A stretch of 64,000 nt of DNA from Candidatus Daviesbacteria bacterium (GTDB lineage Bacteria > Patescibacteriota > Microgenomatia > Daviesbacterales > UBA10151), in assembly GCA_016432425.1 (NCBI GenBank), contig CP066688.1, forward strand, positions 343,398 through 407,397, in the 5' to 3' direction. Of this stretch, positions 26,710 through 45,913 are shown one piece after another; the stretch's first letter is position 1; every line of letters starts with the position of its first letter. Under the pieces are notes generated by a model, which had not been told where the DNA came from, did not search any database, and saw nothing but the letters and a program-made list of their open reading frames with translations. Both the position numbers and the translations under genes were made by a program.

Positions 26710-26805
26710 AACTTCAAGTTATTGTAACAAAAAAATAATTTCCTGTATAGTTAGAAATAATTGATATACTTATTTACAGTTTCGCCATCTTGTTTGATTA
26801 TTTCT

Positions 26806-26844
26806 TGTGGATAAAATTGTGGATAAGATTCATTTTGTGGATAA
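26806..26844. promoter_or_regulatory. three perfect DnaA boxes (TGTGGATAA = TTATCCACA complement) upstream of dnaA
   Basis: tgtggataa at 26806-26814, 26818-26826, 26836-26844; followed by 9-bp-stem palindrome tgatccgtc-aaa-gacggatca at 26846-26866. Confidence 0.7.
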
Positions 26845-26882
26845 CTGATCCGTCAAAGACGGATCATGTCAAAGGATCTCGT

Positions 26883-28205
26883 ATGGAAAAACTAAAGCTG
26901 TGGCAAAAAATTACGGTTGAAATAAAACACGAGCTGGACCAGGCTAATTTTAAAACCTGGTTTGGCAACTGTTTTTTAAAGGAAGTTGTGGATGATATTT
27001 TGGTTATAACCGCTCCCTCAGCCTTTATTAAAGAACAGGTCACTCTACGCTACTTAGACCTTTTAACTGAGGCCGCAGAAAAAATTCTGGGGAAAAAAGT
27101 TAAAATCGAGTTGGTAGTAGAGTCAAATAACAACCACAAAACTGTACCAGTAGAGGAAATTTTTGAAGCTCCGGCTCCCTCTCAAATCAATATACTAAAC
27201 CCCAAATATACCTTGGAAAATTTCGTGGTGGGGATGTCTAATAATGTAGCCTTTGCGGCTGCCCAGGCAGTGGTACAAAATCCCGGTATTTCCTACAATC
27301 CTTTATTTATTTATGGTGGAACCGGGGTGGGCAAAACCCATTTAATGTTAGGTATTGGCCATGCTATCTTAAAGAAAAACCCCGCCTTAAAAGTGATTTA
27401 TTGCTCTTCTGAACAGTTCACTAATGATTTTGTCAGTGCCATTCAAAACCATCGCATGGGGGACTTACGGGCCAAATACCGCTTAGCTCAACTTTTACTA
27501 ATTGACGATATCCAATTTTTCTCCGGCCGGGAAGGTACTCAGGAAGAATTTTTCCATACCTTTAATGAGCTGCAAAGTAAAAATTCCCAAATGATTATTA
27601 CCTCCGACCGATCTCCCCATGAGATTGCTAAACTGGAAGATCGTCTCCGCAGCCGTTTTGCCGGCGGTTTAATGGTGGATATCCAACCGCCGGATTTTGA
27701 TACCCGGGTGGCCATTTTAAAAGCTAAAGCCAATGAGTGGGGGACTACTCTACCAGAAGAAGCTTTAAAATTAATTGCCGCCTCTTCTGAGGTTAGCATC
27801 AGGGAGTTGGAAGGAAAACTCCTGCAAATTATCCAGGTTTTAAAAGCCCAAAATTTACCTACCACTACAGAAAATATTACCCTATTTTTAAATAAAACTC
27901 CCAAAAAACTACCTGCTTTATCTCACCAACAAGTACTAACTATTATTTGTCATTATTTTAATTTGGCCAACAAGGATTTAATTGGCCCCAAAAGACAAAA
28001 AGAGTTGGTTTTACCGCGTCATTTGGCCATGTATATTCTCTCCGAAGAGTTGGGGATGACTGTGGAGCGGATTGGTCAAATACTGGGTGGTAGAGACCAT
28101 ACCACTGTTATGCACGCCCGGGATAAGATTAAAAACTTGATCACTAAAGATAAGGAAATGCAACAAATTTTTATAGAGATTAAACAAGAGTTATCCACCA
28201 ATTAA
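26883..28205 (+). CDS. dnaA: chromosomal replication initiator DnaA
   Basis: AAA+ GGTGVGKTHL, DnaA box-binding C-terminus; start likely MEKLKLWQ (track ORF from 26790 spans the DnaA boxes). Confidence 0.95.
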   Translation: MEKLKLWQKITVEIKHELDQANFKTWFGNCFLKEVVDDILVITAPSAFIKEQVTLRYLDLLTEAAEKILGKKVKIELVVESNNNHKTVPVEEIFEAPAPSQINILNPKYTLENFVVGMSNNVAFAAAQAVVQNPGISYNPLFIYGGTGVGKTHLMLGIGHAILKKNPALKVIYCSSEQFTNDFVSAIQNHRMGDLRAKYRLAQLLLIDDIQFFSGREGTQEEFFHTFNELQSKNSQMIITSDRSPHEIAKLEDRLRSRFAGGLMVDIQPPDFDTRVAILKAKANEWGTTLPEEALKLIAASSEVSIRELEGKLLQIIQVLKAQNLPTTTENITLFLNKTPKKLPALSHQQVLTIICHYFNLANKDLIGPKRQKELVLPRHLAMYILSEELGMTVERIGQILGGRDHTTVMHARDKIKNLITKDKEMQQIFIEIKQELSTN

Positions 28206-28367
28206 CATAACTTTTCCACTAATTATCCACCAAAAATCCACCACTTATGAACACGAAAAAAGAAAGAAACTTGAACTTAAATTTTTTAACTTTACACATA
28301 TCCACCATATCTTCTAATATTACTACTAGTTTAAAATATATTGTATAATCTAATGACTTGTTGAAAA
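28206..28367. promoter_or_regulatory. AT-rich dnaA-dnaN spacer with DnaA-box-like 9-mers (candidate oriC/DUE)
   Basis: ttatccacc (28223-28231), aaatccacc, atatccacc variants plus AT-rich tract ttaaaatatattgtataatc. Confidence 0.4.
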
Positions 28368-28832: not shown

Positions 28833-29924
28833 ATGAAATTTTCCATTTTACAACAGGATTTATTGCCAGCCCTGCAAGCAGTCTCCCGCTGTGTTAATCC
28901 TCATGCCAGTTTACCGGTTTTAGCCAATATTTATTTATCTGCCCAAGGGCAAGAGATTAGGTTGGCGGCCACTAATTTAGAAATCGGTATTTTTAAAACT
29001 TTTAAAGCAGAAATTATTGAGGAAGGGGAAATTACTGTGCCGGCCAGGATGTTTTTAGATTTAATCAGCTCTTTACCGGGGACAAAATTAGATTTTGAAA
29101 CCAGCCAGGATATTTTATTATTAAAAAGCGGTAAATTTAAAGCTCAAATTAATGGTTTATCAGCCAGCGAGTTCCCCGTCATTCCTTTACCTCAAGATCA
29201 TCAAATTGATTTTCCATCAGAGGTTTTTAGGACATCACAGTCAATTTTGTTTGCGGCAGCCACAGATGAGGGACGCCCTACCTTAACCGGTATTTTAGTT
29301 TTTACTAAAGGAGATAATTTAAACTTTGTGGCCACTGACGGTTTTCGCTTGGCTTTTAAAGAGGTCAAGTTAACAAAAACGCAGGAGTTTAAATTTTTAG
29401 TACCCAGGCGAACTTTTGAAGAAGTACTGCGCTTATTGGATGAGGAAGAAGTAGACAATCTAAAGGTGACCAGTTCCCCAAACCAGGTAGTCTTTGCTTT
29501 TAGCAAAACCATTCTTTCCTCCCGGTTGATAGAGGGCTCTTTTCCGGCCTGGGAAAAAATTATTCCAACGGAAATAAAGACTCGTTTAATTATTAATAAA
29601 GAAGAGTTGTTGAAAGCTTTAAAAATAGCCTCAGTTTTTGCCAAAAATGAAGCCAATATTATTAATTTGGATTTAAAAAAAGAGGGGTTGATAGTCAAAT
29701 CCGCTTCCCGTCAACTTGGTTCTCAGGAAATGGAAGTAGAGGGACAAATAGAAGGGGAGGAGTTGTTGGTAGCTTTTAATGCTAAATTTTTACTTGATGC
29801 CGTCAGCAACTTACCTACCAGCCAGGCTATGTTGGAATTTTCCGGGGAACTAACTCCCTGTCTGGCCAAACCAGTAGGCATGGAGGGATTGCAGTACGTG
29901 GTCATGCCGATGGGGAGAAGTTAA
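28833..29924 (+). CDS. dnaN: DNA polymerase III beta sliding clamp
   Basis: 363 aa, three-domain beta-clamp pattern, immediately downstream of dnaA. Confidence 0.9.
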   Translation: MKFSILQQDLLPALQAVSRCVNPHASLPVLANIYLSAQGQEIRLAATNLEIGIFKTFKAEIIEEGEITVPARMFLDLISSLPGTKLDFETSQDILLLKSGKFKAQINGLSASEFPVIPLPQDHQIDFPSEVFRTSQSILFAAATDEGRPTLTGILVFTKGDNLNFVATDGFRLAFKEVKLTKTQEFKFLVPRRTFEEVLRLLDEEEVDNLKVTSSPNQVVFAFSKTILSSRLIEGSFPAWEKIIPTEIKTRLIINKEELLKALKIASVFAKNEANIINLDLKKEGLIVKSASRQLGSQEMEVEGQIEGEELLVAFNAKFLLDAVSNLPTSQAMLEFSGELTPCLAKPVGMEGLQYVVMPMGRS

Positions 29925-32430: not shown

Positions 32431-34146
32431 TTAACCTTGCTGGCGAGCAAGGATCTCGGCCGGGTTGGAGGTAATTAACTGGTGTTCCTCGGGGGAGGCC
32501 ACTACCCTCATGGCCACATGAGTATTGCCGGCAAAAAAGAGCCCCTGGCCCACTCCGGCAGCCAGCAGCAGACGCTGTTCACCTTCTGATAGATAAAAGA
32601 CTTGGGCCACTTTTTCTATTGAAGCCGGGGCTTGTTTTAGTAGTACCTGGATGGAGGAGTTGGAGATAATTTCTTTGCCCCGGTCAGTCCCCAAAAAATC
32701 TTCCACATCCTGGGTAATGGTGGTCAGCCCCAAATAATATTTGCGGGCCCTTTTGGCCATATCGACCAAGAAATCAGCGCTATCTTGGTTTTGCATTAAA
32801 TACCAGGCCTCATCCACCACCAAAAGGCGTTTTTTGAGTTTAGAGCGCACTTTGGTCCAGATGTACTCCAAAATAATATACATGGCCAAAGGACGCAGTT
32901 GGTCAGGCAGGTCACGCAGGGAAAAGACAGTAAAAGAGTTGCTGATATCAATATTGGAGGGTTGAGAAAAAATACCTGCCAAGGATCCTTTGACAAAGCG
33001 TTCCAGCCGGGCAGAGAGACTGGTGGCAATAGCATCTTCCATACCCATTAAAACTTTGTATAAATCTTCCATTAGAGGGGCGGGGCGGTTTTGGGTTTTG
33101 GGGTCATCAGTAATACCAAAACTGGCATAAGTTTGTTTTAAGCTTCTGTCTAAGATGGCTGCCTCTTGGGGGGAGAGTTGCCCTAAAACCAGTTTTAAAA
33201 AGCCAGTCAAAGACAAAATTTTTCGTCCCAACTCATTTTCTCCTGGATCGCCACTTAAAGATAGGTCAAAAGGGTTGATTTTAACTGCTGAATTAACTGA
33301 AAAGTTTAGATATTCTCCGCCAATAGCTTTGCACAAATTTAAATATTCCTGCTCCGGGTCAATCACCAAAATTTCCGTGCCAAACATTAAAGAACGCAAG
33401 GCTTCCAGCTTAACAAAATACGACTTCCCTGCTCCGGATTTGGCAAAAACTACCGAGTTGGCATTTTCCAAAGAAAAACGGTCGAATAAAATTAATGAAT
33501 CATTGTGTTCGTTAATCCCATACATAATGCCACTGTTGGAAGTTAACTCTGAGGAGGCAAAAGGAAACATGGAAGCCAGTGAAGTAGTGTCCATATTATG
33601 AGTAAAATTAAGCAAATCTTCCCCTAAAGGGAGGCTGGATTTAAAACCTGCCTCCATTTGCAGGGTGGTGGGTCTGGCCGTCATCGACAAAGAGGCCAGA
33701 GTAGATTCTACCAGTTTAGAGGTATTAGCTAACTCTTCTTTATTGTCCGTGGGCAGGGTGACATAAAGGGAATACTGGAAAAACCGCTCGGTGCCCCGCA
33801 CCAATTGATCTTGTAGGGCCCGGGCATCTTCTAAGGCCACTTCCACCGCCGGGTTAACTTGCTGCCCCCGTTCTAAGTCAGTTTGGATGGTGGCTTCCAT
33901 TTCAGCAATTTTCCTTTTTAGATCATTTAAGACTCCACTGGGCTGTTGTGGATAAATAAACATGGATAGATACAGCGAGTGGTCAAAAGAAATGACTGGT
34001 TCCAGCCAATTTAAGTCGACAAATCTGGGGTAAGCAGACACAAAATAGGTGCGATAAAAGGTTTGGTTAATCCGTAAATGGTTAAAATCCACCTCCATTT
34101 CCGCCGGGGCAATCAAATCAACTAAATTTAAATTATGGGGGTTCAT
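32431..34146 (-). CDS. type IV secretion ATPase VirB4/TrbE/PrgJ family (C-terminal ATPase portion)
   Basis: Walker A VVFAKSGAGKSYFVK, Walker B LLVVDEAWYLM, GLTTITQ; overall VirB4-like pattern. Confidence 0.75.
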   Translation of the reverse strand: MNPHNLNLVDLIAPAEMEVDFNHLRINQTFYRTYFVSAYPRFVDLNWLEPVISFDHSLYLSMFIYPQQPSGVLNDLKRKIAEMEATIQTDLERGQQVNPAVEVALEDARALQDQLVRGTERFFQYSLYVTLPTDNKEELANTSKLVESTLASLSMTARPTTLQMEAGFKSSLPLGEDLLNFTHNMDTTSLASMFPFASSELTSNSGIMYGINEHNDSLILFDRFSLENANSVVFAKSGAGKSYFVKLEALRSLMFGTEILVIDPEQEYLNLCKAIGGEYLNFSVNSAVKINPFDLSLSGDPGENELGRKILSLTGFLKLVLGQLSPQEAAILDRSLKQTYASFGITDDPKTQNRPAPLMEDLYKVLMGMEDAIATSLSARLERFVKGSLAGIFSQPSNIDISNSFTVFSLRDLPDQLRPLAMYIILEYIWTKVRSKLKKRLLVVDEAWYLMQNQDSADFLVDMAKRARKYYLGLTTITQDVEDFLGTDRGKEIISNSSIQVLLKQAPASIEKVAQVFYLSEGEQRLLLAAGVGQGLFFAGNTHVAMRVVASPEEHQLITSNPAEILARQQG

Positions 34147-34889
34147 ATATTATCTCCTAACTCTTCTACGACAAAAGGATGGGTTTTGGCCCGGGCCAAA
34201 TTGGGAAAAAAATTGCTGGTCGGAGTAATTGGAATGGGAGTTGGCTTTGGCTGGGTGGGAAAGGGAGTAGCAGCTACTTGGGGAGCTGCTAATTTAACAG
34301 GGGGAACCTGCACCGGAGTAACTATTTTAGTACTAATAGTTTGGTTATAGATATTAAAAAATAATTTGACCAGCTGGGCATTTTTCAACTGCTCTGCCTT
34401 GATGCCGGCCCGGGAGAGCTGGCGGATAATTTGATCGCGCCGGGGTAAAATAATGGCCTTAATTTTAGGCAACTGAGATAGGGAGTTAGGTTTTAAAGAC
34501 AGCCCCAGTTCCAGCGAGGAAACATTGATGGCAATATAGAAATTTTTATCCAACACTTCGTTTTCTTTGATGGTTTGTTGAATAAAATTGCGGTAGCGGG
34601 TCATCATAGCAGAAAGCAGAGGATTGTTTTGTAGTTTTTGGGCGCTATCCAATAAAGTTAAATATGAGCTAATATCTAACTTGATTGACTGGATAATAAT
34701 TTGGATGGGAAAAGATAAAGAGTTGAGCAGTTGGGCAAAGCTGTCGACAATGGCCAGTTGTTCTTTTTGGGAAAGCAGCCCAAAATTGACTGCCCCCACT
34801 TTTAATACTAAGGTGGCACCGCCGTCTTTTAAAAGTAGTAAGTCGCTGTTGATATCTTGAACTGTTAAGCTATTTTGAGTTTTGGTCAT
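34143..34889 (-). CDS. hypothetical protein, possibly detached N-terminal domain of VirB4 (ATGA overlap with downstream ATPase), Pro/Thr-rich tail
   Basis: 248 aa + 571 aa roughly equals typical VirB4 length; 4-nt overlap; no motif of its own. Confidence 0.3.
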   Translation of the reverse strand: MTKTQNSLTVQDINSDLLLLKDGGATLVLKVGAVNFGLLSQKEQLAIVDSFAQLLNSLSFPIQIIIQSIKLDISSYLTLLDSAQKLQNNPLLSAMMTRYRNFIQQTIKENEVLDKNFYIAINVSSLELGLSLKPNSLSQLPKIKAIILPRRDQIIRQLSRAGIKAEQLKNAQLVKLFFNIYNQTISTKIVTPVQVPPVKLAAPQVAATPFPTQPKPTPIPITPTSNFFPNLARAKTHPFVVEELGDNI

Positions 34890-35743
34890 ATTAATTTTTT
34901 AGCTGATACCGTTAAAGGTGATAAGGTCGTACCTTTTAAATTAATCTGAATTTTGTCAAAGGATAAACTCTCTTTTTCCAACTCAATCAGATAAGTACCA
35001 TTGGGTAGGGGGGTGGAACCGGAAAACTGGCCCAATTTGTTAGTTTTTAAGGCTCGAACAGGCAGCCCTGTTTTGTCGTAAATAATCACTACCACTCCTT
35101 CTAAATAATTGCCGGCTGCATCGGTAATAATGCCATTGATCACATTTGGTATGGTGGTCAGCACTAACTGGCCGGGTTTGATTTTACTAGCCGGGACCAC
35201 TTTAATAGGTTCATTTTTAACCATTGGTGGAAGATCCACTGGAGTTGGAGTAGGAGTGGGGGTAACTGGTGGAGTCGGGGTCACAACTGGCGCAGCAGTA
35301 GGAGTGGGCTGAGCAGGGATGATAGTAGCAGTTTGGGTGGGAGGGGTGATTTTGGCAATCACCGGTGGAGTAGCTGTTTCTAGGCTGGCCACCACTTGAG
35401 AAATAATGGACCCGCGCTGGCTAAAAAGGGCCGTTTGCTCCCAGGAATGGTCATTTTTGGACCATACCCACTGAGTAGGAGAATAAACTGCTTTTAAGAA
35501 AGCTTTCACCCAATAATCCAGCGGGCGGTCGGCAATGGGCATAAAAGCCAGCGCGACCCCCACCAGAGCAAAAAAGGTAATCAGCGGCCAGGCTAAAAAT
35601 CCCAGAATAGGAAGCAAAAAGACAAAGATTAAATAAGCTGTTCCCATTCCGAAAGATAAGTATAAAAACTGTTTTAAAGTCATGTCCCCCACTAATCTAA
35701 ATTCAAAAGCAGTGACGTTTTGTGGGATAGGATGGGCTTCCAT
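34886..35743 (-). CDS. VirB3/PrgI-like 2-TM protein fused to Pro/Thr linker and CnaB/carboxypeptidase-regulatory-like beta domain
   Basis: N-terminal YLSFGMGTAYLIFVFLLPILGFLAWPLITFFALVGVALAF; linker TPTPPVTPTPTPTPV; C-terminal GIITDAAGNYLEGVVVIIYDKTGLPV…GTYLIEL. Confidence 0.4.
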   Translation of the reverse strand: MEAHPIPQNVTAFEFRLVGDMTLKQFLYLSFGMGTAYLIFVFLLPILGFLAWPLITFFALVGVALAFMPIADRPLDYWVKAFLKAVYSPTQWVWSKNDHSWEQTALFSQRGSIISQVVASLETATPPVIAKITPPTQTATIIPAQPTPTAAPVVTPTPPVTPTPTPTPVDLPPMVKNEPIKVVPASKIKPGQLVLTTIPNVINGIITDAAGNYLEGVVVIIYDKTGLPVRALKTNKLGQFSGSTPLPNGTYLIELEKESLSFDKIQINLKGTTLSPLTVSAKKLI

Positions 35744-38845: not shown

Positions 38846-40522
38846 TTATCGGCGTGGCGGTTGAGATAATTGGCCCAGTCTATTTGTAAAGGAAGTTAAC
38901 CAGCGCGGCGCTCCAGGAGCGGTTGCTCTTTCTTCTAATAATCTAGATCCCGCTGCAGCTGCTCCTCTGCCAAAACTAGGTGCTGCTGCTGTCACCACAG
39001 TTTGCCCCCGGCCCAATCCTGCCATGGCCTCTTGGGGAATACCGGCAATATCTTTAACCCCAAAAGCGTTTTTGACCATATCAGGGATGGCTGGAGTGCC
39101 TAAAATTAAGCCGTAGGCAATAATTAATCTCAACAACTCGATACTTAAACCGCCAAAAAGTGGGGGTGAGGCTACCCAAGACTTTGAGTCAGTTTGCAAG
39201 ATCATACCGGCAAACAAAAAAGCGGCAAAAACAGCCGGGAAAACTAAAGCATTAGCTAAAATTGTTTTCCACCATAAATTTAAAGAGCCTCCCTTGCCGG
39301 GAATAGAGGAATATAAAATAATAAATGGTGAGAGGATAGTGGAAACCAGCAGGGCAATGTAGGCCCCGATTAATTTCCACAGCAACCTAAAAAATTGGAT
39401 CAATAAAGCAATCACTAAAATTAAAGGGACAATCAATCCCACAATGCCGGTGAAGGCTGCTCCCGCTCCTGCTCCCAGGGCAGTGCCTGCTCCCAAACCC
39501 AGAAGTGTACCTGCTCCCGGAAAAACAATAGTGCCCACAATGGTTCCGATAATGGCCGGCAACCCAATGGCTAAAGCTGCTCCTCCCCTTTCACCGCCTA
39601 CAGTTGAAGATAGGGTCCCAAAAAGCCCTTTAGTGACATCATGGATATTTTCCGGAATCCTAAAAGTTGACACAAACATATTGAAAACATTGGAACTATT
39701 GGCTAAATCCTGAACCTGTAAAACATTAGGGGTGGCCAAAAAAATCTGGGCTACTGCTTGGACCCCGACAAAAGAAGTGTCAATTAACAGAGCAGAGAAA
39801 AAATAACTAAAGGTCACTAAAACTATACCTATGACCAGTCCAGGCAAGGCAGCCTGGGCGGAAATAACAGTTTGAGGATTAATTTTAGAGCGGAACATGA
39901 TCATAAAACCAATGGCAATAAAAACAAAAGTAAAAATAAAATAGGCCAAGTTTCTGCTAATTAGCCAAAGTTGCCTAACTGGTTCAATAATGCCCGCTCC
40001 TGACCCGCCCACCTGGGCATAGGCAGGTTTGGCTAAAAAATTATTTCCTACAGAGGCTAAGTATTGGACAGTAGAAGTAGGTGGGTTGGTATACATGGCC
40101 ACAAAAATATTAGTCACTCCTGCTAAAGCCCCCCCACTTTGGCCAGGACTGTAAAGGACAATTTTGCGCTCTTTGCCAAGGGTAATTCCCAAACATTCGT
40201 CCACCGGGCTCATCCCGGCCAGTTCACAAAACATGCTGTGTTCTAAATTTAAAATAGTGTAATTAGAATGTTGGGGAGCCTTATAATTTTCCTGGGTAAC
40301 TGATTTAGGTGTAGGCTTAGGAGAAGGGGAAGGAGAGGTTTGGATACCAGTATTATCTCCTGGAGCTTGAACGGATTTGGAGGTATTAACTGGATCATTA
40401 GTGATTTCAGCCTGGACATTAGTAGCCAGTAGTAAACAGTAAACAGTAAACAGTAAAAATAAAATTATGGCTTTACTGACAACTGACAACTGACGGCTGA
40501 AAGCTGAAATTAGGGCAGACAT
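38846..40522 (-). CDS. VirB6/TrbL-like polytopic membrane protein with signal peptide and Pro/Ser-rich N-terminal region
   Basis: Multiple Gly/Ala-rich TM helices (…GAGTLLGLGAGTALGAGAGAAFTGIVGLIVPLILVIALLIQFF…); located in T4SS cluster. Confidence 0.5.
   Translation of the reverse strand: MSALISAFSRQLSVVSKAIILFLLFTVYCLLLATNVQAEITNDPVNTSKSVQAPGDNTGIQTSPSPSPKPTPKSVTQENYKAPQHSNYTILNLEHSMFCELAGMSPVDECLGITLGKERKIVLYSPGQSGGALAGVTNIFVAMYTNPPTSTVQYLASVGNNFLAKPAYAQVGGSGAGIIEPVRQLWLISRNLAYFIFTFVFIAIGFMIMFRSKINPQTVISAQAALPGLVIGIVLVTFSYFFSALLIDTSFVGVQAVAQIFLATPNVLQVQDLANSSNVFNMFVSTFRIPENIHDVTKGLFGTLSSTVGGERGGAALAIGLPAIIGTIVGTIVFPGAGTLLGLGAGTALGAGAGAAFTGIVGLIVPLILVIALLIQFFRLLWKLIGAYIALLVSTILSPFIILYSSIPGKGGSLNLWWKTILANALVFPAVFAAFLFAGMILQTDSKSWVASPPLFGGLSIELLRLIIAYGLILGTPAIPDMVKNAFGVKDIAGIPQEAMAGLGRGQTVVTAAAPSFGRGAAAAGSRLLEERATAPGAPRWLTSFTNRLGQLSQPPRR
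40431..40508. repeat. two heptanucleotide repeat tracts inside 5' coding region of VirB6-like gene
   Basis: agtaaac x3 plus agtaaaa (40431-40458); tactgac/aactgac/aactgac/ggctgaa/agctgaa (40474-40508). Confidence 0.7.
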
Positions 40523-40569
40523 AATTTAAGATTAAATCAAAGTAGCTTATTTATCAACAGTGTGGCCAG

Positions 40570-41142
40570 TCACTGTTCAGTAACTGGTTTAACTCCCTCC
40601 GGGAAATTAGCCTGCTGGTAGGTTTCCTCATAATCTTTAACCTTTTCGACTCCTGGAAGAGTTGGCAAATCTGTGCCATAAACCCCAGTGGGTCCCCTTA
40701 AAAAGCTCTTTAGTTGTTCTATGGGGGTACCTTGTAACTTGACATCTGGAGGGGTTTGAGTTTGCTGAATAGTTTCTGATTGGACAAAAAACTTTTCTAT
40801 ATTAAGGGTTTGCCCGGCTTTACTTACTAATTCTGAGAAAAAATTACCTATTCCACTCAAAATCTGGCTTACTAAATCCTGATTAGGTAATTTATCTTTA
40901 ACTGCCTCCGGGGCCAATAAATTCTGGTTCAAATTATAAACAGCCTGTTCCTCAGAATTTATGGTAATAGCCTGAATAGGAGTAGCCAGTAGTAAGTAGC
41001 CAACAGTAAACAGTAAAAATATAATTGTTATCTTATTAACAATTAATTTAGGGGCAGACATAGTTTTAAAATTTACAGGTTCCGTTATAAACACTACTTT
41101 TAAGTGAAGCAATATTTCCCCCACCAACTCTGGCTGGTCCAC
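40570..41142 (-). CDS. small secreted/membrane protein with N-terminus paralogous to VirB6-like protein
   Basis: ITIIFLLFTVGYLLLATPIQAI vs IILFLLFTVYCLLLATNVQAEI; underlying DNA also heptamer-periodic (agtagcc agtagta agtagcc aacagta aacagta). Confidence 0.35.
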   Translation of the reverse strand: MDQPELVGEILLHLKVVFITEPVNFKTMSAPKLIVNKITIIFLLFTVGYLLLATPIQAITINSEEQAVYNLNQNLLAPEAVKDKLPNQDLVSQILSGIGNFFSELVSKAGQTLNIEKFFVQSETIQQTQTPPDVKLQGTPIEQLKSFLRGPTGVYGTDLPTLPGVEKVKDYEETYQQANFPEGVKPVTEQ

Positions 41143-42997
41143 GGGTACTAAAAGTATATTTACTTCCTGGCGGCATCTTTCTATTTACAAGAAGATTATC
41201 ATAAGGATTTTTCAGTTCTCCATAACGACCAATAGCATAACCTACTACTTTACCTCGGTTATCATATCCCACCTGGATAATTACAGCTCCTCTGTAGAAG
41301 GTATCAAGTGTTAAATCTCCTTTATTAATGACCACCCCACTTCCCACCATGAATCTTTGATCAGGAGCAAGATTTAATGATGAAGATTCAAATTCCACCA
41401 TACCGTAATCTCTGGGATAAGTAGAGACTGGATTGGTGGGTTGCTCTGAAAGTTCGACACTAGCACGGTCTATATTACCGGCGGCTAAAGAGGCTGTCAT
41501 AATATTATGAGGTCCAGCATCAAAAGTGGCGCCTACATAATCCTTATTAGGATTCATACAATAGAAGCTTATTTCAGTTGTTTTTGCCACTGGAGAATTA
41601 TTTCTGGTCAGAAATTGAGGAGTAAAACTTAAATATTGTCTCCAAAAATTAGGCATAGTTAATTCCCACACTGCATGGATACGGTTTTCTCGGCAGTTAC
41701 GTTCAGTAGGATTATTAATACAATCCCATGAAGGTCCTTCAAAAATCTGTACGTCTTTAAATACTACTTTAGTAGAGGTAATCACACCTGTAGGTTTTTC
41801 TAAAGTAGGGGTAATTGGTGTATAAGTAGGTGAATATATTTGGTTCAACGGTCTTTGTCGTAGATAATCTTGAACTGCCCAATTACCATCACTTAACTGC
41901 CACCATAAATAACCATCAGTATAAACCGGACCTCCGGTAACAAAAACTGAGCTACCCTCTTTTTCGCAGCGTTGCACTCTACTGTTGGTGGAAGGTTGTT
42001 CCCTAATATTTAAACAGCTGCCGGTCCCGGAAATGACGGCTTGATCTTTAAGAGTAAAAGCAGGGGTGGGAGTAGGTTGAGGAATTTCGGTAGGGGTAGG
42101 GATGACGGTAGGAACAACTAATGGGGAAATATCTGGGGGTGGGTTTTTGGTTAAATAAACCGGGTTAAAATCAATATAATTAATGGTACCCTCACAATCC
42201 TTAGAGTTTCTACTTTCCTCCCTGCACCAACTGGTATTAGCTACCCTAGGTTCTTCTCCTGATTTAGCGAGGATACCATTGCGGTCACCGGGTAAACTTT
42301 TGTGTGCCCAGCCGGCAATGGGTTGGGATTCATCAAAAGGAACTGGTTGGTCACCTTTGTACAAGGCTACATCTACATGAGGGCCGCTATTAAAATGGTC
42401 GGGGCTATGTTCACAAGAAGTAAAACCCAATTCGCTGGTGTAGGCGACTTTGTCTCCTGGTTGTACTTTGATTTCACCCAAATGTTCATATTCGCTGCTG
42501 TAACCATTAGGATGGTCAATTCTGACCATACTGTGCCGTGGGTCGTTGGGATTATTTTCCTTCCCCACCCAAGCTACTACTCCCGGGGCCATTGGCCTGA
42601 TAGGTATAGTGCGGATGATTAATGTTTTTTCTGGCTCACATAAGCCGGCAGCCACGGAAAAGTCTAAATGCCCGCTATGGGCCCCACCGCCTCCGCCGGT
42701 AAAATAACCCCGGCCCCAAAAAGGGAACTGCCAGCCCAAGTTTTGTGCCCCTTGGTCTGGCTGACTGACTATTGGTGAGCTGTCTAATGGCTGATCAGGT
42801 GAAGAAGGTGTGGTCCCACAACCGACAAGAGCCAAACCAGCCAGTGGTAATAGTAAATTTAAATTGGAGTTTGAGGGGTGGTTAGAATCTAAAAAATAAT
42901 TAACGCGAAGTTCGTCTGCCAGAGATGGTCCAATTACTCCTTTACCCCAATCTCTGGAGCCATCATCCAAATAAGTGTAGCCTAATTCTTTACTCAT
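41066..42997 (-). CDS. lipoprotein with M23/LytM-like peptidase domain (HxH degenerated to HVD) plus additional beta-rich domains
   Basis: Lipobox LALVGCG; GAHSGHLDFSVAAG; RIDHPNGYSSEYEHLGEIKVQPGDKV; GPHVDVALYK in place of GPHLHFE. Confidence 0.45.
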   Translation of the reverse strand: MSKELGYTYLDDGSRDWGKGVIGPSLADELRVNYFLDSNHPSNSNLNLLLPLAGLALVGCGTTPSSPDQPLDSSPIVSQPDQGAQNLGWQFPFWGRGYFTGGGGGAHSGHLDFSVAAGLCEPEKTLIIRTIPIRPMAPGVVAWVGKENNPNDPRHSMVRIDHPNGYSSEYEHLGEIKVQPGDKVAYTSELGFTSCEHSPDHFNSGPHVDVALYKGDQPVPFDESQPIAGWAHKSLPGDRNGILAKSGEEPRVANTSWCREESRNSKDCEGTINYIDFNPVYLTKNPPPDISPLVVPTVIPTPTEIPQPTPTPAFTLKDQAVISGTGSCLNIREQPSTNSRVQRCEKEGSSVFVTGGPVYTDGYLWWQLSDGNWAVQDYLRQRPLNQIYSPTYTPITPTLEKPTGVITSTKVVFKDVQIFEGPSWDCINNPTERNCRENRIHAVWELTMPNFWRQYLSFTPQFLTRNNSPVAKTTEISFYCMNPNKDYVGATFDAGPHNIMTASLAAGNIDRASVELSEQPTNPVSTYPRDYGMVEFESSSLNLAPDQRFMVGSGVVINKGDLTLDTFYRGAVIIQVGYDNRGKVVGYAIGRYGELKNPYDNLLVNRKMPPGSKYTFSTRGPARVGGGNIASLKSSVYNGTCKF

Positions 42998-43009
42998 TGT
43001 TTATTTAAA

Positions 43010-43342
43010 TTAAGGACACCAATTAGTTCCGCCAACATTACACAAAGTTTTAATGTCAAAAGTTTTTAAGCCTTCTAAGCCGGTAAAGGCCGCAACCAGC
43101 TGCAATACCAGCCAGGCAATGACCAAAAACAGTATTCCTAAAAGGGCCCAGGTGACTGTCATGGAGGCTGACTGGATGGCTTTGGCATCTCCCCCGGAAG
43201 TTAAGTACCTAATTCCTGCCCACACTAATACCATCACCAAAGCTACAAAAGCCGCGGCTACTGACAAATTAATGATTCTGCCAAAAAGCGCTTCCAGTTG
43301 GGTCAGGCCGGCTGCATCGCTGACTACATTGGCGGGGGTCAT
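43010..43342 (-). CDS. T4SS pilin-like protein (VirB2/TrbC-like, 2 TM), paralog 1
   Basis: Two hydrophobic helices flanking SGGDAKAIQSASMTVTWA motif. Confidence 0.5.
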   Translation of the reverse strand: MTPANVVSDAAGLTQLEALFGRIINLSVAAAFVALVMVLVWAGIRYLTSGGDAKAIQSASMTVTWALLGILFLVIAWLVLQLVAAFTGLEGLKTFDIKTLCNVGGTNWCP

Positions 43343-43379
43343 AATTTAAAATTATCACTCGGATAAGCCCAGGTCAAGC

Positions 43380-43805
43380 TCAGCGTGATAAAGAGGGGGT
43401 GGGGTTTTGTGGTGAAGGAATAGTGAATTCTCTTAACAGATCAACTCCTAAGAATCCTCCGGCCAGTTGGACTATGGCAAAAGCTACTGCCAAAATGGCC
43501 AGCCCCACTAGGGCATGGATAATTCTACCTCTGGCATTGCCAATGGCATCTTTATTACCCCCGGATAAAATCCACTCCACTGCCCCCCAGACTAACATCA
43601 CTAAGGCAATAATTAAAGCAATAATAAAAATTAGCCTAATTCCGGCATTTAAAAAATCAGAGATATTAGCAAAACCTACGTCAGGTTTTTTGATTTGGAT
43701 GGTGGTATCTGCGGCCCACACTCCCACCGGATTTAAAAGTGCTGTTGCGGAGGCGGTTAAGATAGATAGTTTTTTCATTTCTAATTTAATAGTATGCAAC
43801 CCCAA
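43380..43805 (-). CDS. T4SS pilin-like protein, paralog 2 (signal peptide + 2 TM)
   Basis: MKKLSILTASATALL signal; WILSGGNKDAIGNARGRIIHA motif. Confidence 0.5.
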   Translation of the reverse strand: MGLHTIKLEMKKLSILTASATALLNPVGVWAADTTIQIKKPDVGFANISDFLNAGIRLIFIIALIIALVMLVWGAVEWILSGGNKDAIGNARGRIIHALVGLAILAVAFAIVQLAGGFLGVDLLREFTIPSPQNPTPSLSR

Positions 43806-43813
43806 TTAGTTTG

Positions 43814-44149
43814 TCAAGTTTTAAAGAAAGTAAATCCGGTAAAGATTCCCACTAGGTTTAAAATAGCAAAAGTAATACCCAAAAGAATAATGCCGATAAT
43901 AGCATGAGTAATTCTACCTCTGGCATTGCCAATGGCGTCTTTATTGCCGCCTGACATAATCCACTCAAAAGCTCCCCATACCAGCATAAAAACAAAAATA
44001 ACAGCTGCGATTTCATAAATTAAAATTATCAAGTTGCTTAAAAATAAGCTAATTCCGCCGGCTCCGGTCGGGTCTTTTTCTACAAAAGGCTGCAAGGGAA
44101 GAGGGGGAGTAATTTTACCAAAGACATCTTCTACGGCTGCCAGTTTCAT
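43814..44149 (-). CDS. T4SS pilin-like protein, paralog 3
   Basis: WIMSGGNKDAIGNARGRITHA; ~85% nt identity to paralog 2 across motif region. Confidence 0.5.
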   Translation of the reverse strand: MKLAAVEDVFGKITPPLPLQPFVEKDPTGAGGISLFLSNLIILIYEIAAVIFVFMLVWGAFEWIMSGGNKDAIGNARGRITHAIIGIILLGITFAILNLVGIFTGFTFFKT

Positions 44150-44469
44150 TGGCCTCCTTTAATAATTTGGAAATTGGGAATATCAAATAAAGCAGACAAA
44201 ACAAACTGTAAAATTAAAAAGGCCATCATTAAGATTATAAACCCAATCATAGCATGGGTCATCATCCCCCGGCCGGAATTCAATGCTTCTTTGTCTGATC
44301 CGGCAGTTAAAAACTTAAAAGCCCCAAAGATAAAATAAAATACTACCAGCCCTGCCGCAATGGAAAAGGTGGGAGCGACTAACCGGTCAACGCCTTGGCC
44401 CAGCGAGGAAATTTCTCCAAAAGCAAACTCATCTTTTAATTTCACTTCAGCAATTAAATTATTTATCAT
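44146..44469 (-). CDS. T4SS pilin-like protein, paralog 4
   Basis: FLTAGSDKEALNSGRGMMTHA flanked by two TM helices. Confidence 0.5.
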   Translation of the reverse strand: MINNLIAEVKLKDEFAFGEISSLGQGVDRLVAPTFSIAAGLVVFYFIFGAFKFLTAGSDKEALNSGRGMMTHAMIGFIILMMAFLILQFVLSALFDIPNFQIIKGGQ

Positions 44470-44789
44470 ATTGGTATGACTACTTTGCTATTTGGTTGCA
44501 AAATTTCCTTGGCAAATTGGGCGACAGCGAAGGCCAGGGCAATCATAATCAAACCAACGATGGCCCAAATAATTCTGGATCTGGCTTGAGCCAATTTTTG
44601 CTTATCCCCACCGGCCGCAATGTATTGAAAAGCAGCCCAGACAATCCAAAAAAAAGCTAAAAAAGCCGCCAAATAAAAGGTCATGTTCAACAGCCCGGAG
44701 ATAACATCTCCCAAATTATTAAATTTGCCTGGACCGGTTCCCCCAACCGGAGATGTGTCCCAAATTTTTGGTAAATCCTTAAATTCCAT
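44466..44789 (-). CDS. T4SS pilin-like protein, paralog 5
   Basis: YIAAGGDKQKLAQARSRIIWA flanked by two TM helices. Confidence 0.5.
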   Translation of the reverse strand: MEFKDLPKIWDTSPVGGTGPGKFNNLGDVISGLLNMTFYLAAFLAFFWIVWAAFQYIAAGGDKQKLAQARSRIIWAIVGLIMIALAFAVAQFAKEILQPNSKVVIPI

Positions 44790-44791
44790 AA

Positions 44792-45913
44792 TTATACTTC
44801 AGGTAGTATTCCTAGTATATCAACTCCGATAATTTGCATAAAGAGGACGGAAAAGACGACAAATAAAATACCAATAATAGCACTGGCAAAACGGTCATGG
44901 CCGGCTTTTAACCTTTCCGGGCTGCCGGCAGAGGTGATCATCTCCAGTACCCCAATTAACATCAGCAAAAAGGCAACCCCGCCCCCAATACCCAGGCTAA
45001 AACGGAAAAGATCTGTAATTAAAGCTAAAGGTTTAGTGTGGACACAACCAATGGCGGTAGCTACACCCTCTCCACTGTCACAAGCAATGCCGGATGAAGA
45101 AGTACAACCAGGAGTGCCGGGAGTACAAGGAGGGGGAATGGAAGAAGAAAAAGTATGACCCTTCTTATCAGTGGTTATTACTAAATTGGCGGTAGTAAAA
45201 ATATTTTTATTGTCTGGAGTTAAGATTTGAGCTTGGATATTGTATGATCCAGCCGCTAAATCAGCTACTCGATTGGAGATGTTAATACTAGAAGTACCTG
45301 AATTATCAGTTGAGCCTTGTCCAATTGGTCTCCCTTCTAAATTAGTAATCTTCAATTGAATAAAAGCTTTTTCTATCGGACTCCCATCGTTTTTTTTCAA
45401 AGTAGTATTTGCTGTAAAATTTTCTCCTGCTTTACCGCTAGAAGGGTTAATCGATAAAGTTGATTGATAATCAGATTGGGCTGGCTGAACAGTAAATTTG
45501 ATGGTATGACTGGTTTTTTGTAGTTTCCAACTACAAAAAGCTCTATTACCTAAGACGTCAATATTGCATGACTCTTTGTATACTCTGGCAAAGACTTCAT
45601 AGTTACCAGTTGTTTGGGGATCTATTCCATAACTACCCTCAGGATTCCTTGCTAAAAGAGAATCATAACTGCGGCTATCTGTATAACATTGGCTATCGGC
45701 TCTAGAGCCAGTAAATATTAAATCAGCGGCATCCTTTTTAAAATAAATAACTAAACATGTCCCAACATCAATTCCGTCATAAGAAATAAGCAAGTTATCT
45801 TGGGCAGTAGGAGAAGCAGGAGAGAGAGTTATAGAAAGAGAGGCTGAATAAATCTCCAATGGTATTAAGAGAGATATTAAAAGAATACTTAAAAAAGTAA
45901 CTATTTTGGGCAT
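44792..45913 (-). CDS. secreted Ser/Thr-rich protein with C-terminal pilin-like 2-TM domain (candidate tip/adhesin pilin)
   Basis: Signal peptide; ~280-aa extracellular region; C-terminal MITSAGSPERLKAGHDRFASAIIG between two TM helices. Confidence 0.45.
   Translation of the reverse strand: MPKIVTFLSILLISLLIPLEIYSASLSITLSPASPTAQDNLLISYDGIDVGTCLVIYFKKDAADLIFTGSRADSQCYTDSRSYDSLLARNPEGSYGIDPQTTGNYEVFARVYKESCNIDVLGNRAFCSWKLQKTSHTIKFTVQPAQSDYQSTLSINPSSGKAGENFTANTTLKKNDGSPIEKAFIQLKITNLEGRPIGQGSTDNSGTSSINISNRVADLAAGSYNIQAQILTPDNKNIFTTANLVITTDKKGHTFSSSIPPPCTPGTPGCTSSSGIACDSGEGVATAIGCVHTKPLALITDLFRFSLGIGGGVAFLLMLIGVLEMITSAGSPERLKAGHDRFASAIIGILFVVFSVLFMQIIGVDILGILPEV

Follow-up and report, generated by a model that had tools for sequence, protein, structure and literature searches.

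The stretch analysed here, hereafter the window, comprises 64,000 nucleotides (nt) of a Candidatus Daviesbacteria bacterium genome (assembly GCA_016432425.1, contig CP066688.1, positions 343,398 to 407,397). It carries a cluster of genes resembling a type IV secretion system (T4SS), and in this cluster a gene for a VirB6-like protein of 558 amino acids (aa), whose 5' coding region contains two tandem arrays of 7-nt units. The features of this gene are, in window coordinates:

38846 to 40522, minus strand: open reading frame (ORF) of the 558-aa VirB6-like protein with N-terminal signal peptide, ATG at 40522, carrier of tracts 1 and 2.
40475 to 40509, minus strand: tract 1, n-region, five 7-nt units (Tandem Repeats Finder, TRF, and lag-7 scan).
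40422 to 40457, minus strand: tract 2, 7-nt-periodic h-region (TRF, lag-7 scan and unit comparison with the neighbouring 163-aa gene).
40523 to 40557, minus strand: promoter-like TTGATA (40552-40557), 17-nt spacer, TAATCT (40529-40534), 6 nt, then the ATG (cross-locus conservation).

The core of tract 2 was detected by TRF as (AGTAAAC)x3.9 at 40431-40457 (100% matches, score 54), and part of tract 1 as (ACTGACA)x2.9 at 40475-40494 (100% matches). The two tracts are the sole period-7 arrays in the window at a TRF score of at least 40. A scan for self-matches at a lag of 7 nt lengthened tract 1 to five units at 40475-40509, ACTGACA ACTGACA ACTGACG GCTGAAA GCTGAAA, or TTTCAGC TTTCAGC CGTCAGT TGTCAGT TGTCAGT on the coding strand. 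The lag-7 scores were 20 for tract 2 and 16 for tract 1, whereas the best score in 200 second-order Markov shuffles of the 64 kb averaged 7.9 and never exceeded 13. TRF, the lag-7 scan and the shuffles thus confirmed the 7-nt tandem units that a first-pass annotation, made from the letters of the window, had reported in the 5' coding region of this gene.

Tract 1 encodes residues 5-16, which form the n-region ISAFSRQLSVVS. Tract 2 has (TTTACTG)x3.9 as its coding-strand core and reads AGTAGCC AGTAGTA AACAGTA AACAGTA AACAGTA on the plus strand; with its two flanking units (~40422-40457) it encodes residues ~22-34, the hydrophobic core LFLLFTVYCLLLAT. A cleavage-type site, NVQA|E, comes after this h-region.

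The unit length is not a multiple of three and the tracts lie in the 5' coding region. As the first-pass annotation had anticipated, the gain or loss of one unit would switch the gene off: in silico, such a change in either tract abolishes the full-length protein and leaves a product of 16-88 aa. A shift in one tract cannot be offset by the other, since both shifted frames meet stop codons after tract 1. The next in-frame methionine is residue 97, and a product starting there would be devoid of a signal peptide.

A leader of the same kind is found in the adjacent gene, which had been described as downstream and in fact precedes the 558-aa gene in the direction of transcription:

40570 to 41061, minus strand: ORF of a 163-aa secreted protein, directly upstream of the 558-aa gene, with only the leader module in common.
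40982 to 41016, minus strand: degenerate 7-nt-periodic h-region of this gene (TRF period 14 and period 7 rows, direct repeat, alignment).

The start of the small gene is most likely the ATG at 41061, which gives 163 aa and was also called on Logan contigs, and not a GTG giving 190 aa as first annotated. Its tract, AGTAGCC AGTAGTA AGTAGCC AACAGTA AACAGTA on the plus strand, is weak by itself (TRF period 14, 86%; lag-7 score 9). It is homologous to tract 2, since positions 40969-41042 align with 40409-40482 over 74 nt at 78% identity. In this alignment the h-region units follow the order A B C C C in the 558-aa gene and A B A C C in the 163-aa gene, so that the length is equal and one unit is replaced. 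Alignment of the two leaders further revealed that the n-region of the 558-aa gene exceeds that of its neighbour by exactly 21 nt, or three units. As judged from these alignments, frame-preserving turnover, consisting of the 21-nt difference and one unit swap, has occurred between the two leaders. At the protein level, BLASTP likeness is confined to the leader peptides (residues 7-31 of the 163-aa protein against 14-38 of the 558-aa protein, 16/25 identities), with no other significant match between the two, and the 163-aa protein had no Pfam hit. Of the earlier view of this gene as a small paralogue, the 7-nt-periodic, homologous leader is retained; paralogy of the mature proteins is not.

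Homologues of the 558-aa protein numbered 476, labelled Candidatus Daviesbacteria by their sources (Candidate Phyla Radiation, CPR, also Patescibacteria). Loci were fetched by similarity to the conserved protein body, 80 from species-representative genomes and 80 from metagenomes (cited below by their L numbers); retrieval by the protein body does not bias the sample toward ON alleles. Self-matching of the first 150 nt was strongest at lag 7 in 33 of 75 homologues and at lag 14 in a further 12, with scores up to 29; lags other than these scored 8 or less. Among 130 dereplicated homologues from Daviesbacteria and related Microgenomates, 54 had a lag-7 score of at least 10 in nt 0-200, and none (0/130) reached it at 400-600, 700-900 or 1000-1200. 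The N-termini of the homologues contain 7-residue-periodic peptides, as a heptanucleotide repeat yields when read in three phases (e.g. IFNFQFSIFS, QFTIHNLQFTIY, SEFRVQ..., LVIGYWLLVIS). The period is specific: in 665 kb (first 80 loci, score of at least 12), period 7 accounted for 94 tracts, versus 1-6 for each other period from 4 to 12. Units vary by species (AGTTCAG, CAATTCA, GTTGTCG, TTACTTG, TTTTTAC, CTACCAA, CTATACC and others), and even between genes of one genome, while period and position are kept. Three positions recur, namely the n-region, the h-region and a site just past the cleavage site.

Inspection of the 54 tracts lying outside the start of the family gene revealed that nearly all are in the first ~100 nt of neighbouring secreted-protein genes. 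A tract was present in 71 of 501 ORFs with a hydrophobic N-terminus, versus 3 of 276 ORFs without one (Fisher p = 2e-11). The seven neighbouring tract-bearing ORFs tested all encode T4SS pilins of family PF18895.

The between-species comparisons bear further marks of unit turnover. Between L060 and L079, adjacent units carry the same substitution. The lengths of perfect lag-7 runs have a maximum at 22-25 nt and a minimum at 17-21, a pattern to be expected if net three-unit changes are those that persist; the family mode is ~4.1-4.6 units. Tracts were unchanged in 7 of 16 comparisons (flanks 3-24% diverged), and in the rest they were more diverged, often gapped. The pooled mismatch rates of tract (0.161) and flank (0.160) are equal. 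The information lies in how widely the values scatter, and the definition of a tract carries an ascertainment bias in this comparison. For a count of 7-nt indels, global pairwise alignments of the diverged 5' regions proved too gappy.

The promoter-like sequence ahead of the 558-aa gene recurs in the family. Of 132 dereplicated homologues, 68 have the motif TTGNHH-N16-19-TAnnnT-N5-8-ATG, against a mean of 1.1 in shuffled sequences, and in 53 of these 68 the gap before the ATG measures exactly 6 nt. Shine-Dalgarno-like 4-mers were present in only 4 of the 132, and the window gene has no Shine-Dalgarno sequence. The promoter candidate on the minus strand went unflagged when the window was scanned for generic sigma-70 sites. 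The mRNAs of the window gene and of its family are probably leaderless, because the promoter motif abutting the ATG is conserved across loci, and the repeats would then start ~10-20 nt into the message. At the DNA level, much of the family and the unrelated 163-aa gene have conserved first codons, ATG-NCT-GCC-C (M-S/T/P-A-L/Q/R), perhaps because leaderless initiation or N-terminal processing requires them. TTTACTG, the unit of tract 2, is also the core of the conserved -10 region (TTTTACTGTTAA) upstream of many homologues.

The remaining genes of the cluster that were assigned by Pfam are the following:

41066 to 42997, minus strand: M23 peptidase.
41066 to 45913, minus strand: upstream genes of the cluster, the M23 peptidase and five T4SS_pilin (PF18895) genes (five or six pilin genes in the cluster).
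32431 to 34146, minus strand: VirB4/TraG-type P-loop ATPase.
34886 to 35743, minus strand: PrgI (VirB3-like) family protein.

The upstream genes (41066 to 45913) are without tracts in this genome, whereas their homologues in other species have them. The 558-aa protein itself matched no Pfam family at E <= 0.01 and no TrbL/VirB6 profile. Its AlphaFold model is polytopic and mostly helical, with many long helices (pLDDT, the predicted local distance difference test, 71). The best fold matches in the PDB by Foldseek were to TrwI/VirB6 of R388 (8rtd_L, 7o3v_G/F, 8rt9_F) and were weak (E 0.08-0.4, TM score 0.15-0.39). From the model and its Pfam neighbours, it is a polytopic membrane protein among T4SS genes. 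The label "VirB6-like" is a reasonable one that fits the genomic context, and is not an established identity.

A few kb from the T4SS-like cluster, the window contains dnaA (26790-28205) and dnaN (28833-29924). Repeats with DnaA-box-like TTATCCAC motifs are found at 26805-26830 and 28183-28225, and the cumulative GC skew has its minimum near 28 kb. Therefore, the window probably contains the replication origin, ~5-18 kb from the cluster.

Leaders of pilin genes in other species showed several further arrangements. At L051:821-1930, two adjacent and otherwise different pilin genes share the MNFKFPISNFKCQI start and, without a mismatch, a 38-nt heptamer tract in the n-region (AATTTCAAATTTCCAATTTCAAATTTCAAATGTCAAAT). 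In these pilins, and likewise in the two window genes, leader modules appear to have been duplicated or converted between neighbours. One pilin class, with a mature start ...IGEKFGFGDITSLG, apparently uses AGGAGG with an ATT, TTG or CTG start. Its leader ranges from ~9 to ~45 residues, the long forms being built from heptamer tracts (L054:2186, L079:2300, L044:484, L056:2429, L114:1119 and L036:2190, versus L107:93, L113:61, L067:1832, L038:2050 and L052:2088). Among the homologues at the fetched loci, some (L044:3287-3400, L103:1285-1400, L107:2917-2950) have in-frame inserts within the leader peptide that read HSE(A/R)...RMT in translation, the signature of a small repeat element widespread in CPR genomes.

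Some period-7 arrays are placed outside coding sequence. The longest, (AGATTAA)x9 at L063:1690-1790, is non-coding with stop codons in all frames, and takes up the space from a promoter-like TTGCAA-N17-TACTGT to the ATG of that locus's VirB6-like homologue. In L027 a tract likewise lies in the 5' leader. The tracts at L036:321-352, L056:513-545 and L054:733-757 immediately precede an extended -10-like element, TGGTAAGYT-N7-ATG, that belongs to another gene for a secreted protein; two are (CCCTAAA)-like, resembling plant telomere repeats, and the third is CTACNAA. In addition, a gene whose product is a four-helix-bundle protein of the rRNA-IVS (intervening sequence) type has (AGAGTCT)n at its 5' side (L047:1620-1800, L049:52-130, L038:1355-1384). 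In L047 and L049 the array is followed by an inverted copy (GACTCTAGACTCT), with which a hairpin could form.

We propose, with moderate confidence, that slippage gave rise to the two tracts as heptanucleotide microsatellites. The transcript, probably leaderless, would encode a VirB6-like component of a T4SS-like pilus apparatus, and the tracts lie in its 5' end, where the leader peptide is encoded. In mechanical terms each tract is a frameshift switch, in which one unit gained or lost removes the protein. Over evolution, units would be gained, lost and replaced, and only frame-preserving outcomes would last (a net change of 0 units, or of 3 units and hence 21 nt or 7 aa); the outcome would be a fast remodelling of the n- and h-regions. 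Slippage would be ongoing, OFF intermediates would be viable and switching would matter for fitness. As a contingency switch, the locus would act at low frequency, limited by its short tracts of ~4-5 units, and not as a fast switch of the neuO or opa type. In sum, we regard the tracts as heptanucleotide microsatellites of the slippage type that have the potential to switch the gene; real phase variation is unproven.

A number of observations weigh against this proposal. No OFF allele was found in the ~160 loci, where every family gene is in frame with a start codon and a signal peptide. Repeat-number heterogeneity in related strains, which the first-pass annotation had suggested looking for, was not seen: N-termini are identical within clusters of 90% identity (~15-20 contigs each), the near-identical pairs L047/L104 and L054/L064 differ by single-nucleotide polymorphisms and have equal tract lengths, and assemblies from five more SRA runs match the sequence of this species at 100% over 2.9-6.5 kb, tracts included. 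These searches were made on consensus assemblies, which report the majority allele only and in which minority OFF cells would be invisible. Among ~400 pilin genes there was no convincing case of a frameshift. Many pilin genes that at first seemed to have no ATG were considered as OFF alleles and rejected: some fall in a leaderless pilin subtype, and the others have AGGAGG and initiate at ATT, TTG or CTG. Copy number in the window gene is low (3.9 perfect and 5 imperfect units), and by comparison with proven heptanucleotide or pentanucleotide switches it is at or below the bottom of their range; neither tract is long enough for high slippage. Finally, some tracts are non-coding and lie between a promoter-like site and the ATG or upstream of promoter-like sites, therefore a frameshift role cannot account for every tract. 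The window gene is fixed ON in the sampled populations, and the population signature of a classic contingency locus is absent. The contingency-locus signature recognised in the first-pass annotation is therefore borne out for the type of repeat, its position and the footprints of turnover, and not for OFF alleles, length polymorphism or a long tract.

The stability of copy number and the ON state of all alleles would also be expected if the repeats were a neutral by-product, a possibility that we consider real although clearly not the favoured one. A mutational bias of the lineage toward 7-nt duplication would produce them, and they would be kept in tolerant leaders only, and only at frame-preserving lengths, with no switching role. 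The quantised run lengths, near +21 nt, fit such an origin, as does the non-coding location of the longest array (9 units), which is free of frame constraint. Heptanucleotides are also over-represented in other bacteria, an excess tentatively attributed to the polymerase (Mrazek 2007, as cited in PMC4679880; PMC4692102). Nevertheless, tolerance alone is insufficient to explain the distribution: the last 200 nt of the homologues encode a poorly conserved tail and have tracts in 0 of 123 cases, versus 42 of 123 for the first 200 nt, and intergenic tracts make up only ~8 of the 94. Coding DNA would accommodate units of 3, 6 or 9 nt more easily, yet such units are rare. Moreover, a stepwise gain of three units goes through frameshifted intermediates, which is itself reversible switching.

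Rather unlikely, in our opinion, is a role of the heptamer arrays as a cis-acting nucleic-acid element that affects translation initiation, mRNA stability or localisation, or transcription, the frame being irrelevant. It is suggested by the leaderless-type promoter that abuts the ATG in about half of the homologues (68/132), where Shine-Dalgarno-like motifs are almost absent, by the tracts found in the 5' leader (L063, L027) or just upstream of promoter-like sites (L036, L054, L056), and by the potential structure of the window gene mRNA. Its first 120 nt (40403-40522, minus strand) have a predicted folding energy of -27.9 kcal/mol (z = -2.9), and tract 1 pairs with tract 2 by partial complementarity (CAGTAAA is the reverse complement of TTTACTG), in a stem that, given the period of 7 in both arms, could form in more than one register. 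The structure is however not general. A hairpin between n-region and h-region RNA was rejected as a family trait, the mean z being -0.5 for tract-bearing 5' ends and 0.0 for those without tracts, which is not significant. Differences in unit sequence within a genome and between species count against a sequence-specific binding factor, and the period of 7 is left unexplained.

A coincidence born of Leu/Phe/Thr-rich signal-peptide codon usage, which the first-pass annotation had named as what could undo its claim, combined with a local duplication as the cause of the likeness of the two leaders, is so improbable that it can be set aside: signal peptides are indeed of low complexity and T-rich, and the tract of the 163-aa gene is weak, but the scores of 20 and 16 exceed those of all 200 shuffles, period 7 alone is enriched (94 tracts against 1-6), the n-region tracts are neither hydrophobic nor T-rich, and the period recurs at the same position in 54 of 130 homologues while the units change.

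By analogy, the closest precedents for slippage-driven switching in the leaders of the window gene and its relatives are the opa genes of Neisseria and neuO of E. coli K1. The opa genes have CTCTT coding repeats in the signal-peptide region, in ~7-28 copies, with frequent OFF alleles and variation from strain to strain. The likeness to them consists in a unit that is not a multiple of three within the hydrophobic core of the leader coding sequence of a surface protein, in T-rich units that read as hydrophobic in all frames, and in the presence of a tract in each of several paralogues, here the pilin paralogues of related species. Unlike in opa, the unit is of 7 and not 5 nt, there are ~4-5 copies and two or three tracts per gene, and no OFF allele or polymorphism was observed. 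Heptanucleotide simple sequence repeats (SSRs) that control surface or competence functions through slippage are also found in H. influenzae hmw1A/hmw2A, where 7-bp promoter repeats act on transcription, and in Neisseria dca, with 7-nt repeats. Those arrays differ from the ones described here in being longer and polymorphic, and the hmw repeats in being located in the promoter.

The neuO gene has a heptanucleotide switch, AAGACTC, in its 5' coding region, with 3-53 copies, 20 being the commonest; it is OFF in 65.6% of complete genomes, and minority lengths are measurable within one culture (PMC13001214). It shares with the window gene the 7-nt unit, the 5' coding position and a full-length product at in-frame lengths only, and differs in its single fixed unit sequence, in the location of the repeat outside any signal peptide, in its many copies and in the commonness of the OFF state (PMC13001214). 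More generally, heptanucleotides were the most abundant class of long SSRs with units of 5-11 nt in most genomes examined, and polymerase slippage was proposed as their origin (Mrazek 2007, as reported in PMC4679880). In Beggiatoaceae, Cyanobacteria and Bacteroidetes, direct repeats of TAACTGA are found in 2-6 copies, and for those upstream of start codons in Beggiatoaceae a role like that of the cis-acting element considered above was proposed (PMC4679880), and the GGGNATC heptamers of Xanthomonas and Nostoc show a preference for four units (PMC4692102). Those repeats resemble ours in forming short 7-nt arrays close to starts without Shine-Dalgarno sequence, within an over-represented heptamer class (PMC4679880, PMC4692102). 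In contrast to ours, they consist of a single conserved heptamer per genome and are mainly intergenic, and TAACTGA has stops in all frames. The units described here are diverse and most tracts are translated as leader peptide, so that they do not belong to this fixed-heptamer class.

Taken beyond the window gene, the observations allow a tentative and rather speculative generalisation, namely a lineage-wide heptanucleotide system in Daviesbacteria and related Microgenomates, placed in the leader-peptide regions (occasionally the promoters or 5' leaders) of the VirB6-like protein and of many pilin paralogues, and serving the stochastic switching or reshuffling of the pilus. In the literature searched, no paper linking SSRs or phase variation to the CPR was found. 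If true, the CPR would have its first described contingency-locus system, and the presence of several short tracts per gene would be unusual. The striking excess of 7-nt repeats is confined to the first ~200 nt or so of pilus-apparatus genes and leads to a concrete hypothesis, testable in existing deep metagenomes. If there is no switching, one has to ask why period 7 is found in translated leaders, given that repeats of 3n nt would be harmless. The CPR bacteria are uncultured and depend on hosts, and pili are considered to play a central part in their attachment and uptake of DNA. If the generalisation is correct, these episymbiotic ultra-small cells would vary the components of their pilus, for example against phage or on a change of host.

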